The notes under the pieces: generated by a model | What the model saw: the letters and a program-made list of their open reading frames with translations, nothing else | Databases searched by the model: none | What the model was told of the DNA's origin: nothing | Translations under genes and position numbers: made by a program | In this document: positions 191 to 51,825 of the stretch, piece by piece | How positions within the stretch are numbered: the first letter of the stretch is position 1 | How the letters are laid out: each line of letters begins with the position of its first letter | DNA from: a virus | Taxonomy: Duplodnaviria > Caudoviricetes | Strand: one strand, 5' to 3' | Length of the DNA stretch: 52,429 nt | Virus record (IMG/VR): IMGVR_UViG_3300049489_000174 | Span: 1 to 52,429 of that record

Positions 191-316
191 ATGAACCGTT
201 GGACCAAAGAAGACAAAGCAGAGGTGCTATACACAATCCTCTGTACGCTTATAATCGCAGCGATATTCTTTCCATTCTTCAAATACACAATCATCACCGT
301 TATCCTAGGAAACTAA
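191..316 (+). CDS. small membrane protein (41 aa, not in ORF track)
   Basis: MNRWTKEDKAEVLYTILCTLIIAAIFFPFFKYTIITVILGN; ATGA-coupled to a 27-aa ORF at 111-194. Confidence 0.5.
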   Translation: MNRWTKEDKAEVLYTILCTLIIAAIFFPFFKYTIITVILGN

Positions 317-317
317 C

Positions 318-557
318 ATGTCTACATGGAAAGTGCAGATATTCGGCAAAGAATGTAGTGAAACATGGGAGATTTCTGTTGTAAGAACAGACAACAAGCA
401 TGGTCAAGAATCATGGGGCTGGTTCGACTAAAATAAATTACTAGTAAGCCATAATGGAGGACCATGCCGTTGGCCTCTTACAAAATTCGTATTGGATAGA
501 CAAGTGCAGATAGCGCACGATCTATGCAATAACTTAAACACTAAGGAAACACCATGA
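318..557 (+). pseudogene. hypothetical protein gene interrupted by an in-frame TAA (429-431)
   Basis: MSTWKVQIF...SWGWFD*NKLLVSHNGGPCRWPL...KETP*; the frame stays open after the stop and ends in an ATGA overlap with the next gene. Confidence 0.6.
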
Positions 558-979
558 AACAAGAACTCCGCAACGACTGCATCGACGAAGCAATGTCAAT
601 GCAGATCAACGGTCGTAATCAAGAGAATTACAAGCACTATGCATTTGTAATTCAAAACGGACGTATTGTGTCATATGGATGTAACACTCGCGTAACACAT
701 AAAACGATTTATACTCGTACTACACCTGATGGTGTTACACTGTATAGTTTGCATGCTGAGTTTGTTGCATATCAGAAAGCCAAGAAATCAAAACTGTTTA
801 ATATCGAAGAACCATTTGATATTCTTGTGCTACGATTGAATAATCACTTACGGCTGATGGACAGCAAGCCATGCCGTATCTGTGAAAACTTCCTCTCACA
901 CACGTCGTGCCGTCGTGCCTATTACTCAAAGAGTAATAGTTTCACGATCGAAGGTAACGACTACGTGCAGATACAGTGA
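554..979 (+). CDS. Zn-dependent cytidine/deoxycytidylate deaminase-fold protein
   Basis: HAE and SKPCxxC motifs (SLHAEF...SKPCRIC); SD AAGGA upstream. Confidence 0.85.
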   Translation: MKQELRNDCIDEAMSMQINGRNQENYKHYAFVIQNGRIVSYGCNTRVTHKTIYTRTTPDGVTLYSLHAEFVAYQKAKKSKLFNIEEPFDILVLRLNNHLRLMDSKPCRICENFLSHTSCRRAYYSKSNSFTIEGNDYVQIQ

Positions 980-992
980 AAGGAAATAACAA

Positions 993-1187
993 ATGAAATA
1001 TATAATCCTATCTAGAGTATGCGTGTTTCTAAACAAAGAAAAGTTAGATGATTTTGCTGAATTAGTAGAAGATTACACAAAAGAAAGATGGGTACCTGTT
1101 GGTGGTGTATGTATTTCGATGGACGCCAATCGTAGCCCATCAGAATTTATAGTTGCACAATCATTAACATTTACAAAGGAAGGTTAA
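993..1187 (+). CDS. DUF1737-like small protein
   Basis: W-x-P-x-GG-V...Q-S-L pattern resembles DUF1737; SD AAGGA. Confidence 0.55.
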   Translation: MKYIILSRVCVFLNKEKLDDFAELVEDYTKERWVPVGGVCISMDANRSPSEFIVAQSLTFTKEG

Positions 1188-1190
1188 TCA

Positions 1191-1379
1191 ATGAAAGTCT
1201 ACCTAAACACATACAGCCATTATCCCGTCATATCTCTGTGTACAGAGCAAAACAGTGCATTTGATATGGTAGTAGATATTCCAGCTAATCTAGTAAAACA
1301 ATATCAAGATGCAGAAGAAAAATATACTAAGATACAAGAAAAACTCTTATCATACTATAAAGAAGCCAAGAAAGGCTAA
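1191..1379 (+). CDS. hypothetical protein
   Basis: tightly packed ORF with SD. Confidence 0.7.
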   Translation: MKVYLNTYSHYPVISLCTEQNSAFDMVVDIPANLVKQYQDAEEKYTKIQEKLLSYYKEAKKG

Positions 1380-1382
1380 CAA

Positions 1383-1610
1383 ATGAACCTTCGCACCATC
1401 GACCCAAACACCAAATACGACCTACGTAGTGCAGTATCACTACGTAATGGTATCACACTATACGAAGCATTCCTAGCATGGTCACGCAAAGGCTGTGAAA
1501 TTGCTAAGGATACAAGTAACCGTACACCTGAGGTACGTAGACGAATAGTACAGAGATGCTTTCGTAAGGCTAAGAATTGCTTTCATGTTAGAATGATGCC
1601 GGAGGTGTAA
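1383..1610 (+). CDS. hypothetical basic protein
   Basis: tight operon packing. Confidence 0.7.
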   Translation: MNLRTIDPNTKYDLRSAVSLRNGITLYEAFLAWSRKGCEIAKDTSNRTPEVRRRIVQRCFRKAKNCFHVRMMPEV

Positions 1611-1611
1611 A

Positions 1612-1770
1612 ATGCACACACCACAGATCCTAATTATAATTCTGTTTACAATCAGAGTAACATATGCTGCATGCTGCAACGGAGAAAGTAGAAAGATAGT
1701 TGGATGGGCTACGTTTATTAATGTAGTATTACTAACAGCACTGCTGTATTGGGGAGGTTTCTTTGGGTAA
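1612..1770 (+). CDS. small two-TM membrane protein (52 aa, not in ORF track)
   Basis: SD GGAGG; MHTPQILIIILFTIRV...LLYWGGFFG. Confidence 0.6.
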   Translation: MHTPQILIIILFTIRVTYAACCNGESRKIVGWATFINVVLLTALLYWGGFFG

Positions 1771-2020
1771 CTCACCTGAAATTCACACACAGAAATATGT
1801 ATACATAGAAGACATCGTTGAGTCGTTCAATCTCAATAGTGAGCAAGCACACGATCTTTTAACAGAAAGCACAACTGTTACATTCGGAGATGATGCAGAG
1901 GTATTCATCTCTGCTAATATACTGAAAAACATCTTTTCTGATATTTGTAACATTCCACTATCTGATTATCTTAGCTCGTTGCACAGCAAGCAAATTCAAA
2001 TTCTCATCCATCGTGGTTAA
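1763..2020 (+). CDS. hypothetical protein
   Basis: TTG start with GGAGG SD. Confidence 0.6.
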   Translation: MGNSPEIHTQKYVYIEDIVESFNLNSEQAHDLLTESTTVTFGDDAEVFISANILKNIFSDICNIPLSDYLSSLHSKQIQILIHRG

Positions 2021-2045
2021 TAGCCACACAAACAAGGAACGCAAC

Positions 2046-2660
2046 ATGCGTAAGCCCACCCGTCGTATCAACGACACGTTCAACAACAATACTGCACTAA
2101 AGATAATTGCTTTAGTGCAGCACACTCCAACACCTACAATTCACGAAGTTAGAAAACTTCTTGAGAGTGTTGGTAAGATTATTCGTACTAACTACGTTCG
2201 TCGTGTTGATGTTGTAGGATTGAAGAAGACTCATAAAATCAAAAGTATCGAAGAAGGAAAGACAAAGGCCCGCTGTAAGGCTGGTGATATTGTTAAGGCT
2301 CTGCATAGTATTAATAGTAAGTTAGGGCATAATCGTAAATGTATTATTATAGATGAAGTATCTAAAACATTAATGCCTATGGCTGTATCTCTGGAGAGTA
2401 ACCATGGCACTGATGCAACGGTTAGGCGGTTTACTCCGCAGCCTAACTTTGCACCACATGTATTAAAGCAAGCAGAAGCGCGCATTAATCGTGTTAAACC
2501 TCCTACCACTGAAGTAACACCACCTACTAGAGCCGAGAAAAAGCGTACAGAGCAGCTAATCGCTGAACGCGAAGCCCGTCGCTCGCAGTTACAAGAAGAA
2601 CGTAAGATTGCACTACAAAAGCTCGCTGATAAGATTGACAAGTTAAAAGCTCAGGTGTAA
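2046..2660 (+). CDS. hypothetical basic protein with C-terminal coiled coil
   Basis: ATG 2046 preceded by AAGGA; K/R-rich. Confidence 0.75.
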   Translation: MRKPTRRINDTFNNNTALKIIALVQHTPTPTIHEVRKLLESVGKIIRTNYVRRVDVVGLKKTHKIKSIEEGKTKARCKAGDIVKALHSINSKLGHNRKCIIIDEVSKTLMPMAVSLESNHGTDATVRRFTPQPNFAPHVLKQAEARINRVKPPTTEVTPPTRAEKKRTEQLIAEREARRSQLQEERKIALQKLADKIDKLKAQV

Positions 2661-2661
2661 C

Positions 2662-2895
2662 GTGCCTGATTTCAGCCACCGCATAGACTGCTCTACTGAG
2701 GTGCGAGCACACTATGTGAAAATGAAGTATGAGAAAATAGTAGTATTGAAACATCATCTAGCTGCTCTTACACTGACAGTAGATGGGCAGTTTGTATATA
2801 TTGATGGGCTAATAACTACTGCTCAAGATCCAGGATACATACGTGGTTTGCTAGATGGCGTCAAAGAAACAATCACCGTTTACTACGAAGGGTAA
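2662..2895 (+). CDS. hypothetical protein (start uncertain)
   Basis: ORF in the early cluster. Confidence 0.5.
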   Translation: MPDFSHRIDCSTEVRAHYVKMKYEKIVVLKHHLAALTLTVDGQFVYIDGLITTAQDPGYIRGLLDGVKETITVYYEG

Positions 2896-3163
2896 ACAAT
2901 GCAACGCTATTCATCATTCGCAATTAATTCAATGCACGAGTCTACTGATGGCGAGTATGTAAAATACTCTGATGTAGAAGCATTGATTGCTCGCAATAAT
3001 ATTTTAGAAAAGTAATGGATAGATTTATAGGAAATATTGGTGATAAAAAGCTATTAAATGCCAAGTTAAATGTATTAAAGCCATATGCCACTACTGATAC
3101 AGAAGCAAGATCAGTATGTGAATGTATTGAACTATTACTTTTACTACCTTGAAAGGATGATAT

Positions 3164-3373
3164 ATGCCATACTATATTCATAAGCCACATTGGTTTAGAC
3201 GCGGATTAAAGCGTAAGTTTAAGGCAAATAAAGGATTGCATAGGGATTGTAGTAAAGCTTCGAGGGCTTATGTAGATAATCATGATGATTCATCTGTATT
3301 TAGAAGCTTCCGCCCATTTATGAGAGACTCTAGACACATGCAGAAAGGAATGGTGAAATATGCCACAAAGTGA
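3164..3373 (+). CDS. hypothetical protein
   Basis: SD AAGGA; overlaps next gene. Confidence 0.55.
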   Translation: MPYYIHKPHWFRRGLKRKFKANKGLHRDCSKASRAYVDNHDDSSVFRSFRPFMRDSRHMQKGMVKYATK

Positions 3374-3659
3374 CCGCGCCCGTCGTGCCGCAGAAAAGCT
3401 GGAGCTTCTGAAACGCAACCTAGATAAAGATGTATTTATTATTGCATCAGGCACATGGTTACGTGTTAAGCTAAATGCAATACAAGTAAGTGAAGATCAG
3501 AAAACATATTGGTACTATACAAGTGCGTTCAATGAAAGTTTCAGAACTAACAATGTATATCTGACCATTCAATCATGCAATGCTGCTATTGCATCAAAGT
3601 GGCGTTGGATCAAAGCAGGTAAAGCAACACATAAGGATTTGAACTATGTCCATTCGTGA
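3360..3659 (+). CDS. hypothetical protein
   Basis: overlapping operon packing. Confidence 0.7.
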   Translation: MPQSDRARRAAEKLELLKRNLDKDVFIIASGTWLRVKLNAIQVSEDQKTYWYYTSAFNESFRTNNVYLTIQSCNAAIASKWRWIKAGKATHKDLNYVHS

Positions 3660-3840
3660 AGATGTAGCAAAGTATCTTCATAATAATGAGGTGCTACGAC
3701 TAAACTGGCACTTATCGTATGCGTTTACTGATGAAATCTTAGCACTAGTTCAGAAAGGTCTAGAGAAAGAACTGACCAATGGGTCTAGTAATAACAAGAG
3801 TGAGACAGACAGTAGAGAAATTCAAAACATTCCCAGCTGA
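3646..3840 (+). CDS. hypothetical protein
   Basis: SD AAGGA. Confidence 0.55.
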   Translation: MSIREDVAKYLHNNEVLRLNWHLSYAFTDEILALVQKGLEKELTNGSSNNKSETDSREIQNIPS

Positions 3841-4000
3841 TAAGTTTCATCTCTGCATACTAGTCAATGGGATTAGCTTCTACACTCGTATAGAATACGG
3901 CAGAAGTTACCCATTAACTAGAGCAAACTTCCCTGTTCCACAAACACTACTGCTAGAAATGAACCTAGCAACTAACACATGGAGAGCCTATTATGTATGA
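3779..4000 (+). CDS. hypothetical protein
   Basis: operon packing. Confidence 0.6.
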   Translation: MGLVITRVRQTVEKFKTFPADKFHLCILVNGISFYTRIEYGRSYPLTRANFPVPQTLLLEMNLATNTWRAYYV

Positions 4001-4217
4001 TTTACAGAAATTACAAGAACAACTCACCGATGCAGTAATTGCTAATACTGCAAAAACTATTAAACTATTAGGAAATAGGATGCGAGAGTGCAGTTATATA
4101 AGCGATGATGCTCTTAATAGCTACTATAGATATAGAACAGAAGCAATAAAAAATAGTAATGAGAGGCTAACTCAAATTTCTAAGCTAATCACAGATATTC
4201 AGAACGATGCAACGTAA
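3993..4217 (+). CDS. hypothetical protein
   Basis: SD GGAG; helical. Confidence 0.65.
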   Translation: MYDLQKLQEQLTDAVIANTAKTIKLLGNRMRECSYISDDALNSYYRYRTEAIKNSNERLTQISKLITDIQNDAT

Positions 4218-4285
4218 ATAACACCTGATAAATATACAGAAAGGAGGTGATTATGGAGTTATCTCTTTATGATGGAGAAAGAGAA

Positions 4286-4870
4286 GTGAATATATTCTAC
4301 CTTCACCCTTGTGCCGCAGTATCTGCGTCCTACATGCATGATAAGCATGTAGTAAAAATGATAGTAGAATCTGCACAATTACTATCCACAGCAGCACAGA
4401 TGGTTTGTATGGAGCGTGATACTAGACTCTACAAACCATGTTATATCAATCATCCATGCGCTGTGTGGACTAGATTATCAGTAGATAATTATGAGTGGTT
4501 ATATCAGCACTATATATCTCTTATCAAGATATATGAGTTCACATATAACGACGAGCATCGTAGTGCAGAACTAATGAAGGCATTAAAAGAATATCTAGTT
4601 CTTATGCCTAAAACAGGCTTTACTGAGCCACCATTATGCATGCCTGATGAGTATAAAGTACCTAATGTATCACATTATATCTCATATCGTAAGTATTATC
4701 TAGCCGAAAAAGCTAAAAAGCGTCACTACCGTCGTATCAAACCACCATATTGGGTACAAGAGTACCACAACGCTAGGAGTAACCACGCGATAGAAACAAC
4801 AGTATATTTACCAACAAAATCGGATCTTGAAGAATTGTCGTCGGATCAGTCAGTCTCAGACGAAACCTAA
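4286..4870 (+). CDS. pyrimidine-dimer DNA glycosylase / endonuclease V-like family protein
   Basis: family-typical (M)NIFYL...DKHVVKMIVESAQLLSTA, NHPCAVW, PPLCMPDEYK, YRKYY; GTG start at 4286 after GGAG. Confidence 0.8.
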   Translation: MNIFYLHPCAAVSASYMHDKHVVKMIVESAQLLSTAAQMVCMERDTRLYKPCYINHPCAVWTRLSVDNYEWLYQHYISLIKIYEFTYNDEHRSAELMKALKEYLVLMPKTGFTEPPLCMPDEYKVPNVSHYISYRKYYLAEKAKKRHYRRIKPPYWVQEYHNARSNHAIETTVYLPTKSDLEELSSDQSVSDET

Positions 4871-4884
4871 AAGACACTTTCCGC

Positions 4885-4912
4885 TTGCATTCATCATCAA
4901 GTAGGGTATAAT
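4885..4912 (+). promoter_or_regulatory. sigma70-type promoter TTGCAT-N16-TATAAT
   Basis: -35 at 4885-4890, -10 at 4907-4912, intergenic. Confidence 0.75.
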
Positions 4913-5012
4913 AGTCTTACACCCGGACACCAACCCCACCCGGCCCGTCCAGCCAATGGCCGAAGGTCCAACACCTTCAAAAGAAAACAACAAAGTAAGA
5001 AAAGAATATAAC

Positions 5013-5534
5013 ATGCCTCTCCCCGCCGCTATCACTAAGTCAGTCGCTCCTACCACCACTGCAACCGCTCCAGTTACTGCGGCTGCTACAAATGCAGTTG
5101 AGACTTCTGCTCCAGAAGCATCAGCCGATAAGAAGGTTTCACATATCAAGCAGTTCGCATCAGTTAAGGATGAAGCCGGTAATCTGATTCCTGTTCCTCG
5201 TCCACTTGGTGTTGATCTAGTTGAGTTCGCTAAGGAAACCTACGCTTTCGTCAATGACAAAGCTAAGGCCCTTGGTGCCGAGCTAGCTGAGCTAGTCGAA
5301 GCTGCTGATAGCCTAGATAAGGAAACCATCCCCGGTTCTAAGGAAGGCAAAATCACCTACGGTTTCGCCAACATCCTAGTCAAGCTGTCAGACATCTACG
5401 ATGCAACTCAGCGTAAGCGTGGCGCTGGCGGCTTCGCTGCTATCAAGGCTCGTGAAGCTGCTAAGGATGCTAAGATCGAACAGCTACAGAAGCAGCTCGA
5501 AGCCCTCATGGCTCAGCTTAATGGAGCAAAGTGA
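5013..5534 (+). CDS. probably abundant hypothetical protein (Ala/Thr-rich N-terminus, C-terminal coiled coil)
   Basis: own promoter and terminator; C-ending codons like the capsid gene; ATG at 5013. Confidence 0.8.
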   Translation: MPLPAAITKSVAPTTTATAPVTAAATNAVETSAPEASADKKVSHIKQFASVKDEAGNLIPVPRPLGVDLVEFAKETYAFVNDKAKALGAELAELVEAADSLDKETIPGSKEGKITYGFANILVKLSDIYDATQRKRGAGGFAAIKAREAAKDAKIEQLQKQLEALMAQLNGAK

Positions 5535-5587
5535 TCGGACTAGGCAAACAACCCTAATAGCTGCCTAGATAATATATAAGGGGCAAC

Positions 5588-5637
5588 ACCCCTAGAAGTG
5601 CGAAAACAATAGTAGCGCTTCTAGGGGTTTGTTGTTT
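5588..5637 (+). terminator. intrinsic terminator
   Basis: ACCCCTAGAAGTGC / GCGCTTCTAGGGGT stem followed by TTGTTGTTT. Confidence 0.8.
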
Positions 5638-5657
5638 ATATAGACTAGGAAATAACA

Positions 5658-5993
5658 ATGATCAAACACTACGTATCATGGCGTGTATATGGTAAGACAC
5701 TTTTCTTCTGCGATACAGAATACAAGAGTGTATACAACTACTTTCTGAAACATTGCCCAGGTACCGCAGATATTAAGACAAGGTTGTTTCAAGTAGAGGA
5801 TGTAAAGAATGCTGATAAAATGGTGTATGCTGCGGTAACAGGTAACAAGGATGCATTTATCAAGAAATTATTTCAACAATTCGCTGATAAGTACACAGCA
5901 GGATGCATTATTCGTTATACACAGCAGGTGCTACGTGAGCATCCACCGAAGGTTAATGTTGTGAAAGATGAAGATTTATGTTTAATACCGTAG
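5658..5993 (+). CDS. hypothetical protein
   Basis: SD AGGA, 111 aa. Confidence 0.75.
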   Translation: MIKHYVSWRVYGKTLFFCDTEYKSVYNYFLKHCPGTADIKTRLFQVEDVKNADKMVYAAVTGNKDAFIKKLFQQFADKYTAGCIIRYTQQVLREHPPKVNVVKDEDLCLIP

Positions 5994-6016
5994 TATCTAC
6001 GACACTTTAATTCTAC

Positions 6017-6044
6017 TTGACTTTTCCATAAAGCCCGGTAGAAT
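6017..6044 (+). promoter_or_regulatory. sigma70-type promoter TTGACT-N16-TAGAAT
   Basis: intergenic; spacer shared with the promoters at 13048 and 46395. Confidence 0.8.
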
Positions 6045-6061
6045 GCACTCAAGGACAAACA

Positions 6062-6403
6062 ATGAGCATCATCTCACAGATGGAAGAAATCGACGCTAAG
6101 CGTAAGCAGCTTAAACGCTACAACGCTGATGTTCATTACAATTTTACACGTACCGACGATCTTAGAAAGCTGCTAGAAGAAGCTAAGAAGTCTCTAGCAT
6201 ATTATCAAGAATGTATACCGATGATCGAAGCTGAGTTAATTGCTATTGCTAAAGATACAGAAGCAAAAGAAAAGTATATTGTGAACTACAGCAGTAAGAT
6301 TGAGAATATCGAAGAAGCAACAAAGCTAGCACTTAAGATTGCAAAGCTAGAAAAAGAGAAGGCTGCTGCAATCAAAAAGAATGCAAGAACACCTGTTAAC
6401 TAA
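6062..6403 (+). CDS. coiled-coil hypothetical protein
   Basis: SD AAGGA; heptad pattern. Confidence 0.75.
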   Translation: MSIISQMEEIDAKRKQLKRYNADVHYNFTRTDDLRKLLEEAKKSLAYYQECIPMIEAELIAIAKDTEAKEKYIVNYSSKIENIEEATKLALKIAKLEKEKAAAIKKNARTPVN

Positions 6404-6419
6404 GCCGATAGGATAATAC

Positions 6420-6701
6420 ATGAGTAGCTTCGCTGATTTCAAAGACTTTTATGCTAGGCATAAAGACATCATTGCTAAGTATGAAGCTAAGCGAAGCTAC
6501 GTCGAAACGTTGCTTGAAACAAAAGCAGAATCCGCTGATCCTGTGGAACAAAGTATCTTAGAAACTTGGTTACAAGCTGGTTCTACGTGGCTGCGAGACA
6601 ATGAAGAAGAATACAATAAAGCTACTACAATATCTAAGTTATGTGAGAGTGATGTTAACTCTGTGTTTGAGTTATACGATTCAATCTATTCAACCCAATA
6701 A
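6420..6701 (+). CDS. hypothetical protein
   Basis: SD AGGA. Confidence 0.75.
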   Translation: MSSFADFKDFYARHKDIIAKYEAKRSYVETLLETKAESADPVEQSILETWLQAGSTWLRDNEEEYNKATTISKLCESDVNSVFELYDSIYSTQ

Positions 6702-6713
6702 CGAAAGACAATA

Positions 6714-7010
6714 ATGTCAGATCCTCAATTTACTAATGATTGGTGTAAATTAGAAGGTATTACAATTAAAGAAGATGGAAGCCATGTGTTTACTTTGGCC
6801 TCTACTTTGATCAATAGATATAAGAATTTCAGTAGTGCGCTACATCTGATCTTTGGGCTATCATGGCATAATCATCGTGATTATCTACATCGGTGCAAAG
6901 AACATCTGATGCAAGTGTGGACTAAAGATCAAGTAGCAACGGAAGAATGGTTGCAACAGTTCGTTCAGTATTATATCACAGAAGTCGAACAATACCCACA
7001 GGATGGCTGA
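6714..7010 (+). CDS. hypothetical protein
   Basis: operon packing. Confidence 0.7.
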   Translation: MSDPQFTNDWCKLEGITIKEDGSHVFTLASTLINRYKNFSSALHLIFGLSWHNHRDYLHRCKEHLMQVWTKDQVATEEWLQQFVQYYITEVEQYPQDG

Positions 7011-7013
7011 GCC

Positions 7014-7280
7014 ATGGCTAAAACTAAGGCTGATCTAGAGCAAGAGATTGTTGAGAAGGATCGTAGTATTAGAATGTTAAAAGAGCGAATTGATGTATTA
7101 TATCAACGTAAGACTAAGCGCGCTGTATTAGAACTTCATAATGCACGTAAGTACAGTAAACATATTGAGCTTGAATCGGCGAAAGTTTCTGCACTTAATA
7201 GTATTGCAGTGTCTTTAAGCGATATTAACAGTATTTTACGGCAGGCCGCAGAACCTAAGAACAAAGGTAAAAAGTCATGA
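7014..7280 (+). CDS. coiled-coil hypothetical protein
   Basis: operon packing. Confidence 0.7.
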   Translation: MAKTKADLEQEIVEKDRSIRMLKERIDVLYQRKTKRAVLELHNARKYSKHIELESAKVSALNSIAVSLSDINSILRQAAEPKNKGKKS

Positions 7281-7450
7281 AACTATCCAAACTAGTAAAG
7301 CAAATTGCAAAGCTAGTCGAGATTCCAGAAGATGACATTGATCCTGACCTAATTTTTGAAGCGTTGCCCGCTGGTACAGTGGAAGACGATAGTGATGTTG
7401 ACCTAGAAGATGACAACACATTCGATCCACCCGAGATTGCAGACGAGTAA
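7277..7450 (+). CDS. 57-aa highly acidic protein (not in ORF track)
   Basis: ATGA overlap upstream and TAATG overlap downstream; MKLSKLVKQIAKLVEIPEDDIDPDLIFEALPAGTVEDDSDVDLEDDNTFDPPEIADE. Confidence 0.75.
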   Translation: MKLSKLVKQIAKLVEIPEDDIDPDLIFEALPAGTVEDDSDVDLEDDNTFDPPEIADE

Positions 7451-7965
7451 TGCCTATCAAGCGCTATAACAATATTACTGGTGAATGGGAAGAAATATCA
7501 CAATATCAATTCCGATTGATCAAACTTATAGCGCAAGGCGTCATTGATACTGGTCATTATCAAACTGTAAGGAATGGTAATGACCAGTTGTTAATGGAAA
7601 CCTTCTGCGACCCGTTGAACCTTTGTATCTTAGAAGGCCCAGAATCAACGATACGCTACATGTTCGATCTATGGGATGAAGATTGTAAGCCAGTAGTAAA
7701 CTTCCTAGTTAAAATATATAAGTCATGGCCTTCTGATCTAGGAGCAGAGAACATAGAGGCATGGCGAGACTTTATACTAGACTCCTACGATCTTCAAGAA
7801 GTATACGAAAGATTCCAGCTGATAAGTGACACTGGAAGTAAGTTAAAGAAACTACTAAAGCAGAAAATAAAGTATGCGACCAGACTTAGCAGACAGCTTG
7901 AGAAGATTAAATCTAATCGTAAAAAGTGGCGACAGAGCCGACGAGAACTTACTGGTGGCCGCTAA
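7450..7965 (+). CDS. hypothetical protein
   Basis: 171-aa ORF, translationally coupled. Confidence 0.75.
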   Translation: MPIKRYNNITGEWEEISQYQFRLIKLIAQGVIDTGHYQTVRNGNDQLLMETFCDPLNLCILEGPESTIRYMFDLWDEDCKPVVNFLVKIYKSWPSDLGAENIEAWRDFILDSYDLQEVYERFQLISDTGSKLKKLLKQKIKYATRLSRQLEKIKSNRKKWRQSRRELTGGR

Positions 7966-8257
7966 GTGCATAATGGCACTGATAACTGCACCTGCTGTAG
8001 TATTACAATCATATACCTCACTGAACGAAACGCATTACATGCATGAGTGCTTTATCTCTGAGATTATATGGGAATACTATGGTATAGGTAGGCGATACAA
8101 TCCTTTTGCTTGGCATCTAATGAAGACTATTAAACAGTATGACAAGAAACAATTTGCTGATGTAGGATTCAACAAAGAGTTTATATCAGTGTATTGTAAT
8201 ATGATAGATACAGTAAACACCTTAGCAACCACAGAAACACAAATAGCACTTATATGA
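7874..8257 (+). CDS. hypothetical protein (true start probably ~7955-7973)
   Basis: ATGA-coupled to the nuclease gene. Confidence 0.6.
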   Translation: MRPDLADSLRRLNLIVKSGDRADENLLVAAKCIMALITAPAVVLQSYTSLNETHYMHECFISEIIWEYYGIGRRYNPFAWHLMKTIKQYDKKQFADVGFNKEFISVYCNMIDTVNTLATTETQIALI

Positions 8258-8664
8258 GCCGACCAAACGAAGTATTAGAGTCTAACTTTAGCAAGAAGTT
8301 TAGGCAGACTCTAGAAGCATATGGATGCTATGCGCCTTGCATATCAGGTGGTATGTTCACTGCTGGGCAGCCAGATACTACTGTAGTAACTAGGCAAGGT
8401 GCTGTGTTATTCGTAGAGTTTAAGATATGGCGTATGACAGGACCACCACAGAATAAGCAAGCAGTAGAAAACCTACTGAAAGGACCACAGATAGCAGTAA
8501 TTAAGCACCGGCTGTGGAAGTATGGAGCAACCTGTGTTATAGTAGCACAGTTACATAACAATATAGATAAGTGTGCTTATACAGATGGCACTTACTTTGA
8601 TGTAGTAGAGTGGAAAACTTTAGCTAAGTCGTTAAGTGAATTGAAGCCAGCACCGATAGTATAA
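8254..8664 (+). CDS. VRR-NUC / PD-(D/E)xK nuclease (resolvase-like)
   Basis: E...GQPD...FVEFK...Q motif; adjacent to SNF2 helicase. Confidence 0.8.
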   Translation: MSRPNEVLESNFSKKFRQTLEAYGCYAPCISGGMFTAGQPDTTVVTRQGAVLFVEFKIWRMTGPPQNKQAVENLLKGPQIAVIKHRLWKYGATCVIVAQLHNNIDKCAYTDGTYFDVVEWKTLAKSLSELKPAPIV

Positions 8665-8692
8665 CAGATATACCTAACAAGAAAGAAACAAT

Positions 8693-10516: not shown

Positions 10517-10520
10517 TAAC

Positions 10521-11327: not shown

Positions 11328-11430
11328 GTAAATCATGGCTTGATCGTCAAATAGAAAAGCTGCCTCCTGAAAAGCAAAAGAAAGTACACCAGTTATCTAA
11401 GAAGATAATTAAAAATAATAAGGATAAGAA

Positions 11431-41509: not shown

Positions 41510-41546
41510 GATTATATTTTATCCTTATTTACATTACTTCAAGTGT

Positions 41547-43519: not shown

Positions 43520-43527
43520 ATCGTTCC

Positions 43528-45105
43528 TTAATTGAATGATAATTGGTCGCCTAACCCATCATCACCTACTGCACTATCGTCTTGCACTTCATCGCTATCA
43601 CCTAGATCATGCACTGACGTTAGAAGTCTTATTAGTCCTTCTAATGCATCTGGCCCGTCATCATGATCTGAATTAGGATGATCTTGTATCTGCTCTAGTA
43701 GTATCTTTGTGTATGGGCAGTTTCGTTTGAATCTAAAGAATCCACGTTGAAACCATATAGATAACCGAGATATACGAGTATTCTTATGTACTCCATAGTT
43801 CTCAACACCTATTATATTTGGCGCAATTATGCCTTCCTCTTGTAACTTTGCAAATAGTTCCTCTGCTACTAATGCTTGGAAACCATTAGATTCACAGCCA
43901 AATGCTACATATCTAACCTGTTTATACCATTCTACGATAGTAGATGTAAGTTCAGTTAGCGGTATCTTTCTTATGTCGCACTCAATATAACAACATCTCT
44001 GTGCAGGGCAATAATGACCAGTGAGTATAGGGTTATAGTCACCACGTTTTGTTTCTAATCCTTTTGATGGATCGCAGAATCCTACGGTTACTAGCTTCTC
44101 ATCAGGTAGTTCATCATACATTACTGCATCAGAGAACCATTCTTCAGGAAACTCTGACTTTGTAGGATCTCTAGGATTATTCTGCTTTTCTGCATCAAAC
44201 GCAGCATCACCAATAGATGCACGTAGGCACATTAGATCGTAGTAATCTTCTTTCTCAGCCCATAGCACTTCTGTATCAGCAATCATTGCTGCTTTATTAT
44301 CTATAAATAGTTGTTTACACTCCTCTTTACGTCCATCGTTCCACAGCTTCTTCCACATCTTCCATAGTTCTTCTTCTTTACTCCATTTCATTACAGCGCT
44401 GAACTTAATGGTTATGAAGTCAGGACGATCAGCGAGTATACCTACCATACTCTTACGATGTAGATTATTGCCTACAACGAAGAAGTTAGTGTTTGTATCA
44501 CCACACGGTATCAATGCTCTATTTAGCCAGTTAATATCTTTGTCACGCATGGTCGGTGATCTAACATCATCATCACTCTGCGGGTCGTCTAGTACAATAA
44601 GCGTAGGACGAAATTGACGATATTTAATACCGCGAGCATTCTTGCCTTTACCTAATGCAGCTATGCATACACCACTAGCAGTGATTAAATACTCATCTGA
44701 CCAACTATCTCCTTTAGTGCAAGCCATCGGATACTTCTTACGAAGTTCCTCATTAGTCTCTAGTTCAGCACGTATGCTTTTAACGTATTTCACAGCCATA
44801 TCGCTGGTATCAGCACATAGTAATATGAATCTTTCTGATCCTTCACATATAGCTTTTAACGGCATAGCAAATGAGCAGAATGTGCTCTTTGCATATCCAC
44901 GCGGAACTATAACAGTACGCCTCTGCTTTCTACTGAACTTTAATTCATCAGCAGTGCGGCATAATGTATGATGTACTTCACTAAATCCTTTATCGAAGTA
45001 GTGAGGTATATACTTTTGTGCCCATTCTAGCAGACCTATTTCATCAGTTTGTACTGCTTTCGCTCTTATGCGATCTGCGAGCGACGTTAGTATATTCTCT
45101 GTCAT
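43528..45105 (-). CDS. terL: terminase large subunit
   Basis: PRGYAKST Walker A, LIVLDD Walker B, EKQNNP, CDPS, ESNGFQ, HDDGPDA nuclease motif. Confidence 0.95.
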   Translation of the reverse strand: MTENILTSLADRIRAKAVQTDEIGLLEWAQKYIPHYFDKGFSEVHHTLCRTADELKFSRKQRRTVIVPRGYAKSTFCSFAMPLKAICEGSERFILLCADTSDMAVKYVKSIRAELETNEELRKKYPMACTKGDSWSDEYLITASGVCIAALGKGKNARGIKYRQFRPTLIVLDDPQSDDDVRSPTMRDKDINWLNRALIPCGDTNTNFFVVGNNLHRKSMVGILADRPDFITIKFSAVMKWSKEEELWKMWKKLWNDGRKEECKQLFIDNKAAMIADTEVLWAEKEDYYDLMCLRASIGDAAFDAEKQNNPRDPTKSEFPEEWFSDAVMYDELPDEKLVTVGFCDPSKGLETKRGDYNPILTGHYCPAQRCCYIECDIRKIPLTELTSTIVEWYKQVRYVAFGCESNGFQALVAEELFAKLQEEGIIAPNIIGVENYGVHKNTRISRLSIWFQRGFFRFKRNCPYTKILLEQIQDHPNSDHDDGPDALEGLIRLLTSVHDLGDSDEVQDDSAVGDDGLGDQLSFN

Positions 45106-45929
45106 ATACCATTTTCCTCGTCGTCTATCGTCATACGTGCTGCTTGCTCTTTCAGTGAGTCGTGCAGTAATCGTATCTTTACATCTTCACCACGTATCTT
45201 TATTGTATCGCCAGGAGTGAATGGTATGTTTTCTACTGGTCTTGTTTTAGGTTGTAACTTCTCTATCTCTGATGCAACGGTTTCTAGGTACTGTGCTGGA
45301 ACGTATTTAGCTATAATGTCAGTTACACCAGAGAATATCTTTTCTATAGTCTCAGGAGTTATTTCATTCATCTTACTCATCTTCTCAGTTATCTGAGAGA
45401 TTTTCTCACACAGTATTGTTACTTGCGCTATAAGATCAATAGGTATTTGCCCTGTATTGACCTTCATCACGATTTCACTTAACATCAAACGCATCATCGC
45501 TTGTTCGGCGTCTAGCTGAATCTTAGTTGGTGAACGTAGTATAGCTTCGTAGCGTTCTTGCAGACTGGGATCAGAGAATAAATTAGTATACATATTAACT
45601 TTCTTTAAGTGCTTCTTACAAGTTAGTGAATTACTATATGTTGTGCATCTTTGATTGTATTTGTTTATCGCTACGCAGCGACGACGGCCTTTGTAATCTA
45701 CTTCCGGCAGTACGCCGGTACGTTCGTATATATTCCACATCAACTCATTTGCTCTTACATTACCTACTGCAACACCTAACTGTATCGCTGATAACAGTTC
45801 TGGATTATTACCATTGCATACTTGTACTATGCCTATGTACTCTAGATCAGTAACTAAATCTCTATTCTCAGTAATTATTTCTTTCCAATTACCGCCTTGC
45901 AGTTCAGTAGTTACAATATTACTTTCCAT
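45102..45929 (-). CDS. terS: putative terminase small subunit with CCCH zinc finger
   Basis: immediately upstream of terL; RCVAINKYNQRCTTYSNSLTCKKH; helical oligomerisation region. Confidence 0.6.
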   Translation of the reverse strand: MESNIVTTELQGGNWKEIITENRDLVTDLEYIGIVQVCNGNNPELLSAIQLGVAVGNVRANELMWNIYERTGVLPEVDYKGRRRCVAINKYNQRCTTYSNSLTCKKHLKKVNMYTNLFSDPSLQERYEAILRSPTKIQLDAEQAMMRLMLSEIVMKVNTGQIPIDLIAQVTILCEKISQITEKMSKMNEITPETIEKIFSGVTDIIAKYVPAQYLETVASEIEKLQPKTRPVENIPFTPGDTIKIRGEDVKIRLLHDSLKEQAARMTIDDEENGI

Positions 45930-47624: not shown

Positions 47625-47885
47625 ATGTCACTAGAATACGCACTCAAAGTCAACGAAGAACTAAAGAAAGGTCTAGTATCAGATAACGAGGCACATATTC
47701 TTTTACGTTGGTACCGTAGTATGCCATTTCTTGATGGTATGAAGGTACAACGGTACGTCGAACGTTGTACTAATATCGTCGAGGCTGAGTTGTTTCTTGA
47801 ACGTCTTTGTATTATGCATGAATGTGACCCTTTCTTTAGAGCGGCCCATATTCCTTTTGAGCTTCAGTTACAAGGAGAACAGTGA
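47625..47885 (+). CDS. hypothetical protein
   Basis: SD AAGGA. Confidence 0.7.
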   Translation: MSLEYALKVNEELKKGLVSDNEAHILLRWYRSMPFLDGMKVQRYVERCTNIVEAELFLERLCIMHECDPFFRAAHIPFELQLQGEQ

Positions 47886-47889
47886 TAGT

Positions 47890-48138
47890 ATGCCACATAT
47901 AACAGAGAAGTCTGTAACTAACTATTCTAATAGAGTACAGTCTAAACTACTCAAAGGCCCATGGTCAGCAGATGAAGATTCTACACTAATACACTTAGTG
48001 TCAAAGTTCAACGCTGAGCATACTTACAAAATAGGTAATGTTAACAGAATGTATGCTATAATATCAGATACTATGCATCGGTCTATTTCTTCTTGTCAAC
48101 GACGGTACGTCGAACTAAAGAACTTAGGGAGAGCGTAA
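47890..48138 (+). CDS. single Myb/SANT-domain DNA-binding protein
   Basis: KGPWSADEDSTLIHLV...YAIISDTMHRSISSCQRRYVEL matches the Myb consensus KGpWtxEEDxxL...Ia..l.RS..qC..Rw; SD AAGGAG before ATG 47890. Confidence 0.8.
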   Translation: MPHITEKSVTNYSNRVQSKLLKGPWSADEDSTLIHLVSKFNAEHTYKIGNVNRMYAIISDTMHRSISSCQRRYVELKNLGRA

Positions 48139-48139
48139 T

Positions 48140-48475
48140 ATGCCTAAACTCGAATACATGCTCAATGGGGATACCATTGAGGCATCATCAGATATTAAAC
48201 TTGCATTCTTTTGTCCGGGATGCGAGTGCCATCATGCTTATACTATTAAGGCATATAATAACGTCGGGCCGACGTGGCAGTGGAATAACAGTATGGATAA
48301 ACCTACTTTCTCTCCATCTTTACTTGTAAACTTTACACAGTGGGATGAAGAACAGAAAGTTGGTGTTAAGAGAGTATGCCATCTATTTATGAACGATGGT
48401 AAGATACAGTTCTTGAGTGATTGTACACATAAGCTCGCCGGTACGACGGTTGATATGCTTGATGTGGAAGTGTGA
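48140..48475 (+). CDS. DUF6527-family protein
   Basis: FFCPGC..HH, W.WN...PTFSPSLLV, CHLFM.DGKIQFLSDCTH.LAG.TV. Confidence 0.75.
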   Translation: MPKLEYMLNGDTIEASSDIKLAFFCPGCECHHAYTIKAYNNVGPTWQWNNSMDKPTFSPSLLVNFTQWDEEQKVGVKRVCHLFMNDGKIQFLSDCTHKLAGTTVDMLDVEV

Positions 48476-48815: not shown

Positions 48816-49301
48816 GTATAATTGGTATAATAGATTATATAATTTATCTGCGATTTTATGCTCGATATACCTTTGGTGCTTCGGGTGATTTGTTTTATTG
48901 TATGATGATACTATGATACTGCTTTACTGATGTGCGATGATTCATTGGTACTGCGGTACGTCGGTACTTTGTTATGTAGATATGATAATGATGGGTATAA
49001 TTGGTATAATAGATGTTGCTTGCATTGCGCAATGTTACGACGGTGCCTACGGCCCTTTGTAAGCGTGTGTTAGCATACCCTCCCCCATTGGCACGTTGTG
49101 TGCTTGTCATATGTTATCGCTTGACATACATTCAATGCATACATTGGCACGTTATGTGCTAGTGTCATATCAACGTATCACGATGGACCGATGGTACGAC
49201 GGTACGTTGACGGGCCTGCGGACGCGTTATGATAGGGCCATGCAGCCAACGTGCTGCGCTAACCATCCAACGGTGCAGCAAGCACCAAGGACATGTCAGC
49301 C

Positions 49302-49603: not shown

Positions 49604-49905
49604 TCCGCGCCAGAGCGTTGCCAACGGTTAAATATACGTCGGCACGCAAGTCCCCGTATGGGCAGGCGTGGAACAACATATACGTAGCACAACGGTACAA
49701 TGGTCAATATTGACCGACGTACCGTTGTATCCATTCCCATGCCCTAACAAGGGAACGAATGGAGTTTGTACGTTTCAACGTGGTGGCAGTACCACAACAT
49801 GCGAAGGCTAAAGCATGTGCAAACGTACCGTAAAGCATTGCGACAACATGCCATAATGAGTCACTAGGGGAGAATAGTACCTAGTAGCAACGGACCATTG
49901 TGCTA
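49604..49905 (+). ncRNA. putative multi-helix structured non-coding RNA
   Basis: series of 5-10 bp helices with G-U pairs on the + strand; no ORF; ends at a strong hairpin. Confidence 0.55.
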
Positions 49906-49950
49906 ATAATCCTACGAGGATCATTCGATCTTCGTAGGATTATTGTTTTG
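49905..49950 (+). terminator. long hairpin / intrinsic terminator
   Basis: AATAATCCTACGAGGATC-attc-GATCTTCGTAGGATTATT followed by GTTTT. Confidence 0.75.
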
Positions 49951-50016
49951 TATCATACTACAATAATCGCAAAATATCATACACAACAATAATCCTACGA
50001 TACAAAGGACGACGAT

Positions 50017-50235
50017 ATGCCTGCACCAGTAAATCCATCATTGAATAAAAAAACAAAGCAATGGACAGTACAGCGCATCCGTACAAAACAAGGGCGCATT
50101 GTACGTGATGGCGATAGAATACATCGTGGCAAAGGTCCATGTTCGGAGGTGAAGCGTAAAGCGTACCGTAGGTACGCACATCGGACGGGATTTAATGCTG
50201 AGTATGTTCGTTGCTCGTCGTTACAGATGGCATAA
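50017..50235 (+). CDS. small very basic hypothetical protein
   Basis: AAGGA SD 7 nt upstream; K/R-rich. Confidence 0.4.
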   Translation: MPAPVNPSLNKKTKQWTVQRIRTKQGRIVRDGDRIHRGKGPCSEVKRKAYRRYAHRTGFNAEYVRCSSLQMA

Positions 50236-50409
50236 TTGCCTAGAATATAAATCCCGCCAAGCCGGCCCAAAGTCTGCCGGCGGACCCGAGGGATTGCCCG
50301 ATAAGGCCGTTTCCCGTCGATCCTGCGGACTTTGAGGGGCTGACCATTGCCGTCGTCCGTCGGGGCTGAGATCGCATTTTCTTAGCATTTATGTCTAGGA
50401 ATACTTTTA

Positions 50410-50465
50410 TACTGTGGTACTGCGGTACTGCGGTACTGCGGTACTGCGGTACGACGGTTCAGTGG
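50410..50465. repeat. tandem 8-bp repeat array TACTGCGG (4 perfect + 3 degenerate), iteron-like
   Basis: tactgtgg-(tactgcgg)4-tacgacgg-ttcagtgg. Confidence 0.9.
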
Positions 50466-50537
50466 TGTTTATACTGCTGTGAAACTTTGTACAGCTATGC
50501 TTTTATCAGTAGGATTTACTATCAGAATTACCTACGT

Positions 50538-50787
50538 TCGTCGGTACGACGGTACAGCGGGTGTTTTAACAGAAGTGGGCCAGATAGGTACTATACTGAT
50601 ATATATGTTACTTACTATTGTTATAAATTAAAAAAAGAAAAAAAGGGAAAAAAGGGTGTAAGGTTTTGTTTACACTTTTTTTTAGAAAAAAAGATTTAGA
50701 GAGAGATCAAACCTAAGTAACATATATATCTATATAGTACAGTAGGTGGCCCACTTACCGTCAAACTTCGGACCGTCGTACCTACGA
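50538..50787. other. putative replication origin: ~75-bp imperfect inverted repeat around an A/T-tract core
   Basis: arms 50538-50614 and 50714-50787 share AAGTGGGCCA, GTACTATA, GATATATATGTTACTTA and GGTACGACGGT; core of A and T runs; long non-coding region. Confidence 0.7.
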
Positions 50788-51066
50788 TCATCGATCCTAA
50801 TGACATAGCCCACCCCCCGCAGCGTATCAAAATTCCTAGCATCATGCATTCTACTAGGCATTATCATCTCATCAACATTATATAAACGTACAGCAAATCA
50901 AAGTTAGCATTGTTGCAAAACTATATAAACTACTGATAAAACCCAGACAGCGTCTAGGTAATCCTAGCACCTGTTACATCCCAGGAAAGCACTTATGTGC
51001 CCTTCAATCTTCTCTGATCTATTTCTGACCCACTACATCGAAGATAACAAGCTAGGACTATTACTG

Positions 51067-51094
51067 TTGAAAGCAGTAGATCCGCTGTTATACT
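51067..51094 (+). promoter_or_regulatory. promoter TTGAAA-N16-TATACT with TG extended -10
   Basis: upstream of the small-gene cluster; same 16-bp spacing. Confidence 0.6.
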
Positions 51095-51155
51095 TTCAGT
51101 GCTGGGAGGAAATTATCTCTGTCTCACAAAAATCTAATATCTAAGGAACAAACAA

Positions 51156-51434
51156 ATGAAAATCAAATGTGATTATACACTCCACAGCGGTACAGTTGTC
51201 AACAATTTCACAGCAAATGTAGAAAATATGAAAGACTTTCATGAGTATATGCGGCAAGGGTTTATTGTTAACGGTGATATTAAGTCGTTCACGATCCTAG
51301 AAATCGACGGAACAAAGATAAATCATCCAGTCGAAGAGAATGTACTTGCTGTACAAAAGCAGAAAGAATCACTGTTAAAGAATGCAAAGATAGGCGATAA
51401 ATGGAAGACTAGAAATGGTATTGTACCAATGTAA
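51156..51434 (+). CDS. hypothetical protein
   Basis: SD AAGGA. Confidence 0.7.
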   Translation: MKIKCDYTLHSGTVVNNFTANVENMKDFHEYMRQGFIVNGDIKSFTILEIDGTKINHPVEENVLAVQKQKESLLKNAKIGDKWKTRNGIVPM

Positions 51435-51444
51435 TTAAACTTAT

Positions 51445-51825
51445 ATGAATATATATCATGTATATTCATATAAGTTTAATTACATTGGTACTGACGGTGT
51501 AAAATATCTTCTTACAACCACAGTCGATGGTATATACGATATTGATGCAACTAAACCGCAGGATCTAGACATCTTCGAACCGTTGAACCAAAGCATCACA
51601 GGAACGCTGATCGAAGATAAAAAGAAAGTCGATCAAATGCTAAAAGAAATAGAAACAGTATCTGGAAACTTACATACAATCTACGAAGTCGTATATCGTC
51701 GTACCGACGGCTCAATGGTACAAGTAAAAGTAGAGCATAAAGTATTAATACCACTGTTAAATGCAATAACAGAAGCGCATGGTACTGATTGTCTGCGGTC
51801 CGTCGATCAACAATATACACATTAA
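51445..51825 (+). CDS. hypothetical protein
   Basis: 126-aa ORF in operon. Confidence 0.65.
   Translation: MNIYHVYSYKFNYIGTDGVKYLLTTTVDGIYDIDATKPQDLDIFEPLNQSITGTLIEDKKKVDQMLKEIETVSGNLHTIYEVVYRRTDGSMVQVKVEHKVLIPLLNAITEAHGTDCLRSVDQQYTH

Follow-up and report, generated by a model that had tools for sequence, protein, structure and literature searches.

The octamer iterons of the alpha protein of phage P4 are located at its origin of replication and at a second site, crr, SV40 large T uses pentamers, and protein p6 of phage phi29, nucleated at the replication origins, extends periodically along the genome and has a role in initiation as well as in the control of early promoters. The MetJ metbox is an 8-bp palindrome. 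Here we describe a lattice of 8-bp units, densest at 50.4–50.9 kb, in the IMG/VR virus record IMGVR_UViG_3300049489_000174 (Duplodnaviria; Caudoviricetes), which was analysed whole (52,429 bases, hereafter the window; classed as linear, estimated to be 92% complete and with a GC content of ca. 39%). This lattice resembles known iteron and operator lattices, and a relative of the phage, designated G004, in which the lattice has a retargeted core, adds to its interest. In the available sections of the published accounts, the ParB protein of pSM19035 needs at least four contiguous heptads of 7 bp (PMC9499535); stoperators are dispersed in more than 20 copies in the phage genome and depend on orientation (PMC9283540), motif and repressor diverging together between relatives (PMC9283540; PMC6550527); and the cyanobacterial LexA consensus is RGTACNNNDGTWCB, with GTAC half-sites 8 bp apart and a "tandem repeat structure" AGTACWNWTGTACT, its boxes being single 14-mers upstream of SOS genes (PMC3091678).

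The motif unit is GTACCGNN, which in its loosest form reads GNNCCG and recurs in strict 8-bp register. Its best-conserved positions (C-G-G-x-x-C on the + strand of the copies designated reverse) equal the GNNCCG of an earlier note on this DNA, which had described a CG-rich octamer in 8-bp register and whose every example was confirmed in the sequence. The strong sites have a palindromic GTAC core with CG on one side (GTACCG), this CG side setting the polarity of the unit. The octamer GNNCCGTY occurs 41 times (22 forward and 19 reverse), compared to 14.4 ± 3.3 on both strands, with a maximum of 21, in 100 dinucleotide shuffles, and to 24.1 ± 3.8 in synonymous-codon shuffles, none of which (0/300) reached 41. 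Most of the signal is held by the tandem forms: the two-unit tandem CCGNNGNNCC was found 38 times, against 3.2 ± 1.9 in dinucleotide shuffles and 11.4 ± 2.2 in synonymous shuffles that kept the intergenic DNA intact (0/300 reached 38), while GNNCCGNNGNNCC was present 20 times (0.7 expected) and GGTACNNNGGTAC 11 times (0.0 expected). The observed counts were reached by none of 300 synonymous and none of 300 codon-order shuffles; the tandem counts are thus above codon-preserving controls, as the earlier note had supposed.

A de novo search for over-represented words also recovered the motif, returning CCGTCG, CGACGG, CGTCGG, GGTACG and CGGTAC, as well as the octamers TACGACGG and ACGACGGT. The same was true of the spacing analysis: CG pairs at a distance of 8 bp numbered 100, versus ca. 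51 at other distances of the same codon phase, and GTAC pairs 13, versus 1.5 and at most four at any other tested distance (4 to 24 bp, leaving out codon multiples and multiples of 8). The 8-bp periodicity is the sole non-codon periodicity in the window. Using a two-unit position weight matrix (PWM), 41 windows scored at least 12, versus 1.6 in shuffles; these analyses define 31 PWM clusters and 29 clusters of the two-unit CCGNNGNNCC pattern. Copies of two to four units sit within coding sequence, and the 22 coding hits occupy all three codon phases and encode unrelated peptides, indicating that the signal is at the level of DNA and not of protein. The remaining 16 of the 38 two-unit hits are in non-coding DNA, mostly in a 2.3-kb zone around the palindrome described below. 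The motif lattice is therefore real and statistically solid.

The densest locus is situated in a zone with little coding potential (48.8–51.15 kb). Its main array, of ca. six units in − polarity (50410..50460; 8-bp iteron, direct-repeat family D1), directly follows a TATACT, and was delimited by Tandem Repeats Finder at 50410–50452, with a period of 8, 5.4 copies and 97% matches; its + strand contains four copies of GGTACTGC followed by GGTACGAC, and its − strand reads GTACCGCA/GTACCGTC. The three-unit iteron cluster B (50535..50560, −; PWM score 23) lies 75 bp to the right of the array, and its mirror image is cluster C, of ca. three units (50767..50800, +). Both clusters make up inverted repeat I3, with 16-nt arms (50538–50553 and 50772–50787) that are 94% complementary. 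The origin-like core (50588..50740; inverted repeats I1 and I7) consists of two 27-nt inverted arms (50588–50614 and 50714–50740), 93% complementary, surrounding an AT-rich centre of 99 bp in which there are A/T tracts and a small hairpin. All these elements belong to an extended quasi-palindromic, putative control region of ca. 550 bp (50390..50941; direct repeats D3–D5, inverted repeats I2, I5 and I6), with two 96-bp direct modules on its left side, each containing iterons, and inverted copies of their flanks on its right side. The array plus the mirrored clusters B and C around an AT-rich centre is the arrangement expected of origin iterons.

Further clusters occupy the neighbouring non-coding DNA: a head-to-head palindrome of 2+2 units (49685..49725), with PWM clusters 49686 and 49716 on opposite strands, a four-unit cluster (49184..49215, −; PWM score 22) and a three-unit cluster (48946..48970, −; PWM score 22) that ends 12 bp before a sigma-70-like match (48982–49010). 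The strongest sites are found in non-coding DNA beside sigma-70-like promoter matches and a strong terminator (49904–49945, +).

Two other sequences of this zone deserve mention. A GC-rich stretch (50250–50370), in an otherwise AT-rich genome, directly precedes the array and contains three forward CCGTCG words; RNA folding of the stretch at 50236–50392 was no better than that of shuffles (z = −1.14). In addition, the non-coding sequence at 49085–49165 holds two copies of a word of ca. 35 bp (cattggcacgtt.tgtgct.gtcatat), a pair that stands between two aattggtataatag promoter-like words (ca. 48821 and ca. 48999).

The lattice is not distributed evenly over the window. CCGNNGNNCC is enriched in 1–30 kb and in 47.6–50.25 kb, where only 0–1 of 300 synonymous shuffles reached the count, and is missing between 29631 and 47744; in 30–47.6 kb, zero copies against ca. 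1.3 expected mean no enrichment, yet no significant depletion either. The zone without enrichment (29700..45700) is the conserved structural and packaging module, from the tape measure to the large terminase, and contains just two PWM clusters, at 36922 (score 10) and 45709. The motif does not, therefore, occur genome-wide or throughout, as had been claimed, nor does it radiate from the array, because there is no decay with distance on both sides.

The polarity of the units changes along the window. Ten degenerate tandem clusters of the GNNCCGNNGNNCC type, at 196–15277 (193..15290, +), are in early and replication genes of the + strand and, together with those at 50773 and 51580 across the record end, make a block of twelve forward clusters. 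The site with three to four units inside the dNMP kinase gene (15266..15297, +), 365 bp before the start of the primase-MCM gene, is the strongest outside the 47–51 kb zone, and polarity changes right after it, the next site (15804) being reverse. Seven reverse clusters follow (15804..29071, −), three of them in the + strand genes for primase-MCM and DNA polymerase A and four in − strand genes for distal-tail or accessory proteins; the three in-gene tandem sites at 47743, 48101 and 48439 (47736..48455, −) also oppose + strand genes, among them those for the Myb-like protein and DUF6527, at their ends. After collapsing the CCGNNGNNCC hits to 29 clusters, a two-breakpoint split, with the segment 15804–49193 reverse and the rest forward, classed 26 of the 29 correctly, which none of 1000 label permutations matched. 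Likewise, the block that starts at 50.65 kb, crosses the record end and finishes at 15.5 kb has 12 forward and 0 reverse clusters, compared to 3 forward and 14 reverse in the remainder of the window (Fisher p = 1e-5). When the single hexamer GTACCG/CGGTAC was used, giving 33 clusters of which many are due to chance, the split was correct for 25 of 33 and 275 of 1000 permutations were as good, which is not significant; the significance of the polarity hinges on the definition of the motif.

The replication arms implied by this split are unequal (17 and 35 kb). Of the two flips of orientation proposed previously, that at ca. 50.65 kb was upheld and the other is not firmly at 21 kb: it lies between 15.3 and 20.9 kb, and cannot be pinned within this interval because the orientation assigned to two near-palindromic sites at ca. 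18–19 kb (17981 and 19239) varies with the scoring used. In called genes, 16 sites run along transcription and six against it, some of the latter being within the genes for primase-MCM, DNA polymerase A and DUF6527, and the non-coding clusters mostly oppose the inferred + strand transcription. Since there are reverse copies in + strand genes at 15.8–19.3 and 47.7–48.5 kb, the coding strand alone cannot explain orientation, in agreement with the earlier note. Its additional claim, that polarity tracks the replication arm instead of transcription, fits the two-unit clusters; it was lost with the single hexamer and finds no counterpart in G004, so that a link between polarity and replication arms, confined to this genome and to one definition of the motif, is suggestive.

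We examined 13 family genomes, i.e., the window (G000) and 12 of its 39 relatives, whose whole records were fetched. There was no close relative in the collections searched, with no megablast match in phage records and none in a single-protein scan, and the highest identity of a primase-MCM homologue is 55%. No short-period lattice was present in eleven of the 12 relatives. The exception is G004 (primase-MCM identity, 46%), in which an 8-bp lattice is built on another core, GTNAC: GTNAC pairs occur 35 times at 8 bp, versus 0–2 at distances 5–13. Its lattice comprises 27 chains, 23 in 2.6–14.3 kb and four in 46.9–52.2 kb, with no chain across the intervening 32 kb, which hold the structural module and the polymerase and primase genes. 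The densest cluster (12.67–13.15 kb) contains direct and inverted units and, like that of the window, separates the terminase side from the early genes; elsewhere, the gaps between early genes are flanked by two-unit pairs in inverted orientation, 85–150 bp apart. At the degenerate level the unit of G004 is a palindrome, and its chains display no arm polarity (13 point in one direction and 10 in the opposite one, frequently in inverted pairs). Both phages have a strong site just upstream of the primase-MCM gene, at 15266 in the window and at 46900–47010 in G004. Judging by its sequence, G004 is an independent replicate of the lattice geometry, and the same geometry with a different core is as would be expected if a protein and its sites had diverged together. 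CCGNNGNNCC was not enriched in five relatives (5–30 hits versus 3–19 for a reversed-pattern control), nor was the GTNAC lattice in 21 other relatives (0–3 hits per strand), which indicates that the motif is phage-specific.

Other repeats occupy the equivalent early zone in two of the relatives. G003 contains 64 GGACGC words, with at least 10 copies of a ca. 14-mer (AACGTTGTGGACGCA type) in its early zone at 22.3–24.9 kb; outside this zone, GGACGC mostly follows the gene strand. G005 has ca. 20 tandem 18-bp units with CGTGTCCG at 51.5–52.0 kb, at the record end and upstream of the early genes. In G004, two small paralogous open reading frames (ORFs; 68 and 103 amino acids, 13225–13739) adjoin the densest cluster and have in common a KIDD...VDTKLV...KWYW pattern, which we take to resemble the N-terminal region of phage AP2/HNH-type endonucleases; the 103-residue product had no Pfam match and that of 68 residues just a sub-threshold match to Cript (E = 0.062).

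Compared to the described systems, the window resembles the metboxes of MetJ and the heptads of pSM19035 omega-ParB in having contiguous units shorter than a helical turn, in mixed direct and inverted orientations and with two to seven units per site, and its GTAC core is a palindrome, as the metbox is; contiguous units of 7–8 bp, at least two per site, as in ribbon-helix-helix operators, were found in both the window and G004. It differs from them by its dozens of sites, many inside genes, by its origin-like main locus and by the lack of RHH_1 or ParA-type matches. With the stoperators of cluster A mycobacteriophages (L5 gp71-type repressor) it shares a single short motif dispersed many times. 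However, a stoperator, whose orientation matters, consists of one asymmetric 13-mer to which a monomer binds; most stoperators occupy short intergenic gaps, on both arms, and they serve lysogenic immunity, whereas the window has 8-bp tandems with a palindromic core, many of them in genes, a structural operon without excess and no integrase or S24 match. The iterons of initiator-helicases (P4 alpha, SV40 large T and SaPI Rep) are similar in their inverted short repeats flanking an AT-rich centre, their own primase-helicase and their secondary clusters; the window differs in having dozens of copies up to 30 kb away and a protein made of an MCM-like helicase half and a DnaG/T7-type primase half. 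LexA boxes of the cyanobacterial/Gram-positive type (RGTACNNNDGTWCB; GAAC-N4-GTTC) have the same GTAC half-site word and the same 8-bp centre-to-centre spacing, but they are single 14-mers at promoters, unlike the arrays of up to six units, the in-gene copies and the degenerate misfits of the right arm. The closest analogue of the idea in the earlier note is phi29 p6, which reads bendability with a 24-bp period, whereas here there is a sharply defined word with an 8-bp period. Chi, KOPS and Ter are distributed over whole replicons, unlike the lattice, which is not enriched in 29.7–45.7 kb.

Our preferred reading, held tentatively and with a little less than even confidence, is that one sequence-specific DNA-binding protein serves the origin/control palindrome and, in addition, auxiliary in-gene sites. 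The protein, most probably encoded by the phage, would occupy every GTAC-centred 8-bp unit and touch the copy bound to the adjacent unit, so that two to six contiguous units would form one cooperative site; a DNA-binding protein of small size that acts cooperatively is suggested by the strict sub-helical register, the palindromic core, the contiguity and mixed orientation of the units and their rapid retargeting between relatives. The 550-bp quasi-palindrome (50.39–50.94 kb) would be the locus of high occupancy, acting as replication origin and early control region, from which the primase-MCM helicase, a candidate initiator-helicase, could be loaded in both directions, with two helicase rings placed head to head at the mirrored clusters around the AT-rich centre. 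This putative loading is suggested by the mirrored clusters, the AT-rich centre and the phage's own primase-MCM, together with the precedents of P4 alpha, SV40 and SaPI. The copies of two to four units, located in non-coding DNA at 48.8–50 kb and, through codon choice, in early, replication and accessory genes, may be auxiliary sites of lower affinity that modulate early and middle transcription or keep the protein near the replisome, the late structural operon being left free of sites. A role in early and middle gene control is suggested by the restriction of the dispersed sites to early, replication and accessory genes. The proposal in the earlier note of a cooperative phage protein, dense at the origin and sparse elsewhere, is the one most compatible with the DNA-level signal, the strict register, the quasi-palindrome and the G004 lattice, and binding itself is to be seen as a prediction from these features. 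As to its suggestion of a DNA-marking system, nothing points to one, and no search aimed at a motif-tied DNA methyltransferase or base-modifying enzyme was made.

If one protein reads the lattice, this would be a compact natural recognition code overlaid on coding sequence, with dozens of sites that synonymous choice preserves in the early and replication genes, late genes showing no enrichment. The window and G004, with the same geometry and a different word, would make a pair in which to follow the joint change in specificity of a cooperative binder and its dispersed sites, and would allow the study of origin definition and early-gene timing in an uncultivated primase-MCM phage.

Several observations weigh against our preferred reading. 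A role related to the replisome predicts sites along the whole genome, though ca. 16 kb are without enrichment, and the origin-like locus is ca. 17 kb away from the primase-MCM gene. The origin is suggested by the anatomy of the dense locus: GC skew tracks the gene strand and so gives no independent origin signal, and sigma-70-like promoter matches in the 48.8–51.15 kb zone are not above chance (17 versus 16.3 in shuffles). The 8-bp lattice was present in two of the 13 family genomes, and is consequently not a family-wide requirement. There are also 16 exact matches to the cyanobacterial consensus RGTACNNNDGTWCB, versus 0.84 ± 1.10 (largest value, 5) in 100 shuffles, which makes a host protein conceivable as the binder. 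Lastly, no binder was identified among the proteins searched. In particular, G004 was devoid of a Myb-like counterpart in a six-frame search, and RHH_1 (PF01402), found in 14 of 14 control genomes, had no six-frame match at E ≤ 1 in either the window or G004; the ribbon-helix-helix search used RHH_1 only, and small orphan ORFs could hide such a protein. The DUF6527 protein (48140–48475) is the sole protein common only to both lattice phages among the 13 family genomes. It was rejected as the binder after examination of 80 DUF6527 loci from viral contigs (the match plus up to 10 kb on each side), since a lattice appeared at one of them, which is G004 itself.

Of the binders suggested previously, the Myb/SANT-like protein (82 amino acids; 47890..48138, +) is a candidate reader of the motif, with a six-frame match to PF00249 above the cut-off (E = 1.1e-5, 25.9 bits versus 24.4), and no other sequence-specific DNA binder of the early region is recognisable with Pfam. 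No relative of it turned up in viral contigs, and one homologue in a large protein collection (66% identity, 85 amino acids), on contigs of up to 4.1 kb. The other, a supposed dead HNH protein, is a basic protein of 72 residues encoded beside the array (50017–50235) that matched no family; its Atlas model is of low confidence (pLDDT, the predicted local distance difference test, of 0.47) and had no match at 0.9 or above. Among 47 proteins of the window and 10 of G004, searched with Pfam or PHROG, there was no DNA-binding family beyond Myb, and the sole extra hint of DNA binding was a sub-threshold helix-turn-helix match in G004 (16437–16730). The C-terminal region of primase-MCM is conserved among relatives with different repeats or with none.

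A possible, if rather doubtful, alternative to our preferred reading is that the units are purely transcriptional operators, by which a phage regulator would shut off or gate early and middle genes; the array and clusters would then be operators of divergent early promoters, with no origin, and the in-gene copies would be roadblocks to RNA polymerase like the stoperators, the late structural genes having to stay on. The sites do follow gene class in both phages, being in early, replication and accessory genes and not above expectation from the tape measure to the terminase, and the G004 pairs that bracket early intergenic gaps also fit. Clusters adjoin promoter-like hexamers (48947 before 48982–49010, and the array after TATACT), although such matches are no more frequent than by chance. 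Orientation is equivocal: the majority of in-gene sites runs along transcription, but six oppose it, including three within the genes for primase-MCM and DNA polymerase A and one where DUF6527 ends, the non-coding clusters at 48.9–49.2 kb oppose the + transcription implied by the terminator at 49904–49945, and the two-arm split fits 26 of 29 sites while the coding strand fits 16 of 22. There is a precedent in the more than 20 dispersed, orientation-dependent repressor sites of other phages (PMC9283540, available sections). Nevertheless, neither a tyrosine integrase (PF00589) nor an S24 peptidase domain was matched in the window or G004, which argues against an immunity system.

We consider it unlikely that the units are boxes of a LexA-type regulator of the host, with the phage coupling its early programme to the SOS repressor, or soaking it up, and with the G004 lattice corresponding to the box of another host. 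The exact consensus matches mentioned above include the array and the clusters at 47744, 48947, 49193, 15273, 22962 and 45709, and no phage-encoded binder was found. However, the weaker sites of the right arm, with GAAC, GGAC or GTGC cores, do not fit the consensus, and we know of no LexA box that matches the GTNAC core of G004. The nearest isolated phages (31% identity) infect Actinomycetota, and the only match in genome collections was a 1-kb contig binned with a candidate-phylum bacterium. Moreover, six-unit arrays and dozens of in-gene copies are unlike regulons of single 14-mers (PMC3091678, available sections). For annotators, the strong sites are a caution, since they fit a host LexA consensus by sequence alone.

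It is improbable that the lattice is a polar replication or recombination signal laid along the replication arms, with the logic of primase sites, Chi, KOPS or Ter and flipping at the origin and terminus. In a related form, which we regard as unlikely, the primase-MCM replisome or a partner protein would read the lattice as a polar code, with units co-oriented with the fork on both arms and flipping at the 50.65-kb palindrome and upstream of primase-MCM, thereby setting the points of loading, pausing or priming of the fused primase-helicase. The two-unit pattern flips at ca. 50.65 kb and at 15.3–15.8 kb, the latter inside a block of + strand genes, and no permutation equalled its split; also, the two phages coincide in the strong site before primase-MCM. 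If forks moved both ways from 50.65 kb, the lagging-strand template would read 5′-...CCGTC-3′ on both arms; the primase half is of the DnaG/T7 gp4 type, and T7 gp4 primase reads 5′-GTC-3′. Nonetheless, the polarity vanishes with the single hexamer, the arms measure 17 and 35 kb, and 16 kb without sites would hardly be affordable for priming or fork guidance. G004, with its palindromic unit, has no arm polarity, and, in contrast to an 8-bp lattice built on a palindromic core, Chi, KOPS and primase sites each consist of one word. Were the polar code true, it would be a phage-sized polarity of the Ter/KOPS/Chi type, written via codon choice and re-invented with another word in a relative.

It is very improbable that the dense locus is a packaging (pac) or partition site, at which a ring-shaped small terminase or a centromere-binding protein would wrap DNA in 8-bp steps, with incidental dispersed copies. 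The densest cluster of G004 is ca. 1 kb from terminase-side genes and, in the window, site 45709 is inside the gene adjoining that of the large terminase (terminase small-subunit candidate, 45102–45929), but the window palindrome is 4.5 kb from the terminase genes. Similarly, contiguous repeats in mixed orientation constitute the pSM19035 centromere for a ribbon-helix-helix ParB (PMC9499535, available sections), but neither phage has a match to a ParA-type ATPase (PF13614) or to RHH_1. The enrichment of the in-gene copies over synonymous shuffles indicates that these are selected and not incidental.

Finally, a lack of function, as by-product of composition, codon usage, protein repeats or a small mobile element, is hardly credible in view of the shuffles, the three codon phases with unrelated peptides, which rule out a protein-level repeat or codon artefact, and the second phage with the same geometry and another core, even if 8-bp tandem arrays are common in viral contigs (a four-unit GGTAC lattice was found in 32 stretches and the reversed-word control CATGG in 33). 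Miniature mobile elements were discarded because the segments between the G004 inverted pairs are not homologous beyond the motif. The same comparison of 32 with 33 stretches led us to reject the GGTAC 8-bp array as a widespread phage element, and the loci with GGTAC arrays share no protein with the window except translations of the array itself. Five unrelated viral contigs (L063, L070, L074, L081 and L091) have genes for SRAP, UmuD-like and UmuC-like proteins and Dam methylase next to long GGTAC-NNN arrays.

According to our own ORF-based calls, the + strand genes of the window extend from 46.0 kb across the record end and up to 20.4 kb, and the genes between 45.9 and 20.5 kb are on the − strand; the latter include those for tape measure, tail, head, portal and large terminase, within 29.7–45.7 kb. 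The + strand genes code for an SNF2 helicase (8693–10516), a dCTP-deaminase-like protein (10755–11327), Pam3 gp32-, gp33- and gp34-like proteins, a ThyX-like protein (14186–15031), a dNMP kinase (15028–15651), the primase-MCM fusion (15638–18481) and DNA polymerase A (18481–20334). In Pfam, the fusion shows a zinc ribbon and a DnaG/T7 gp4-type primase half, followed by an MCM-like P-loop ATPase half; its residues 117–272 matched DnaG and T7 primase chains in a profile search against the PDB. A tRNA-Ile (anticodon TAT; 14118–14191) was the sole Rfam match at gathering score in the window, with no other structured RNA, and lowering the threshold to E ≤ 0.1 yielded just two chance-level microRNA matches in 48.8–51.2 kb. 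This tRNA adjoins the nucleotide-metabolism set at 10755–15651 (dCTP-deaminase-like, ThyX-like and dNMP kinase) which, together with a pyrimidine-dimer-glycosylase-like protein (4247–4870), could reflect a non-canonical base in the phage DNA.

The − strand gene at 20934–21767 contains tandem coding repeats of 60 bp, and also of 192 bp, at 21164–21632, with 78–79% matches. At the right end, the ORF at 51916–52429 has a long low-complexity tract rich in Ala, Asp and Tyr (GCTGCCGCT-type repeats, periods 9–39) and runs off the record end. Its repeat words recur at bases 2–31 (window 1–31), for which reason the record probably closes on itself inside this gene. A gene homologous to it is present in the relative G001.

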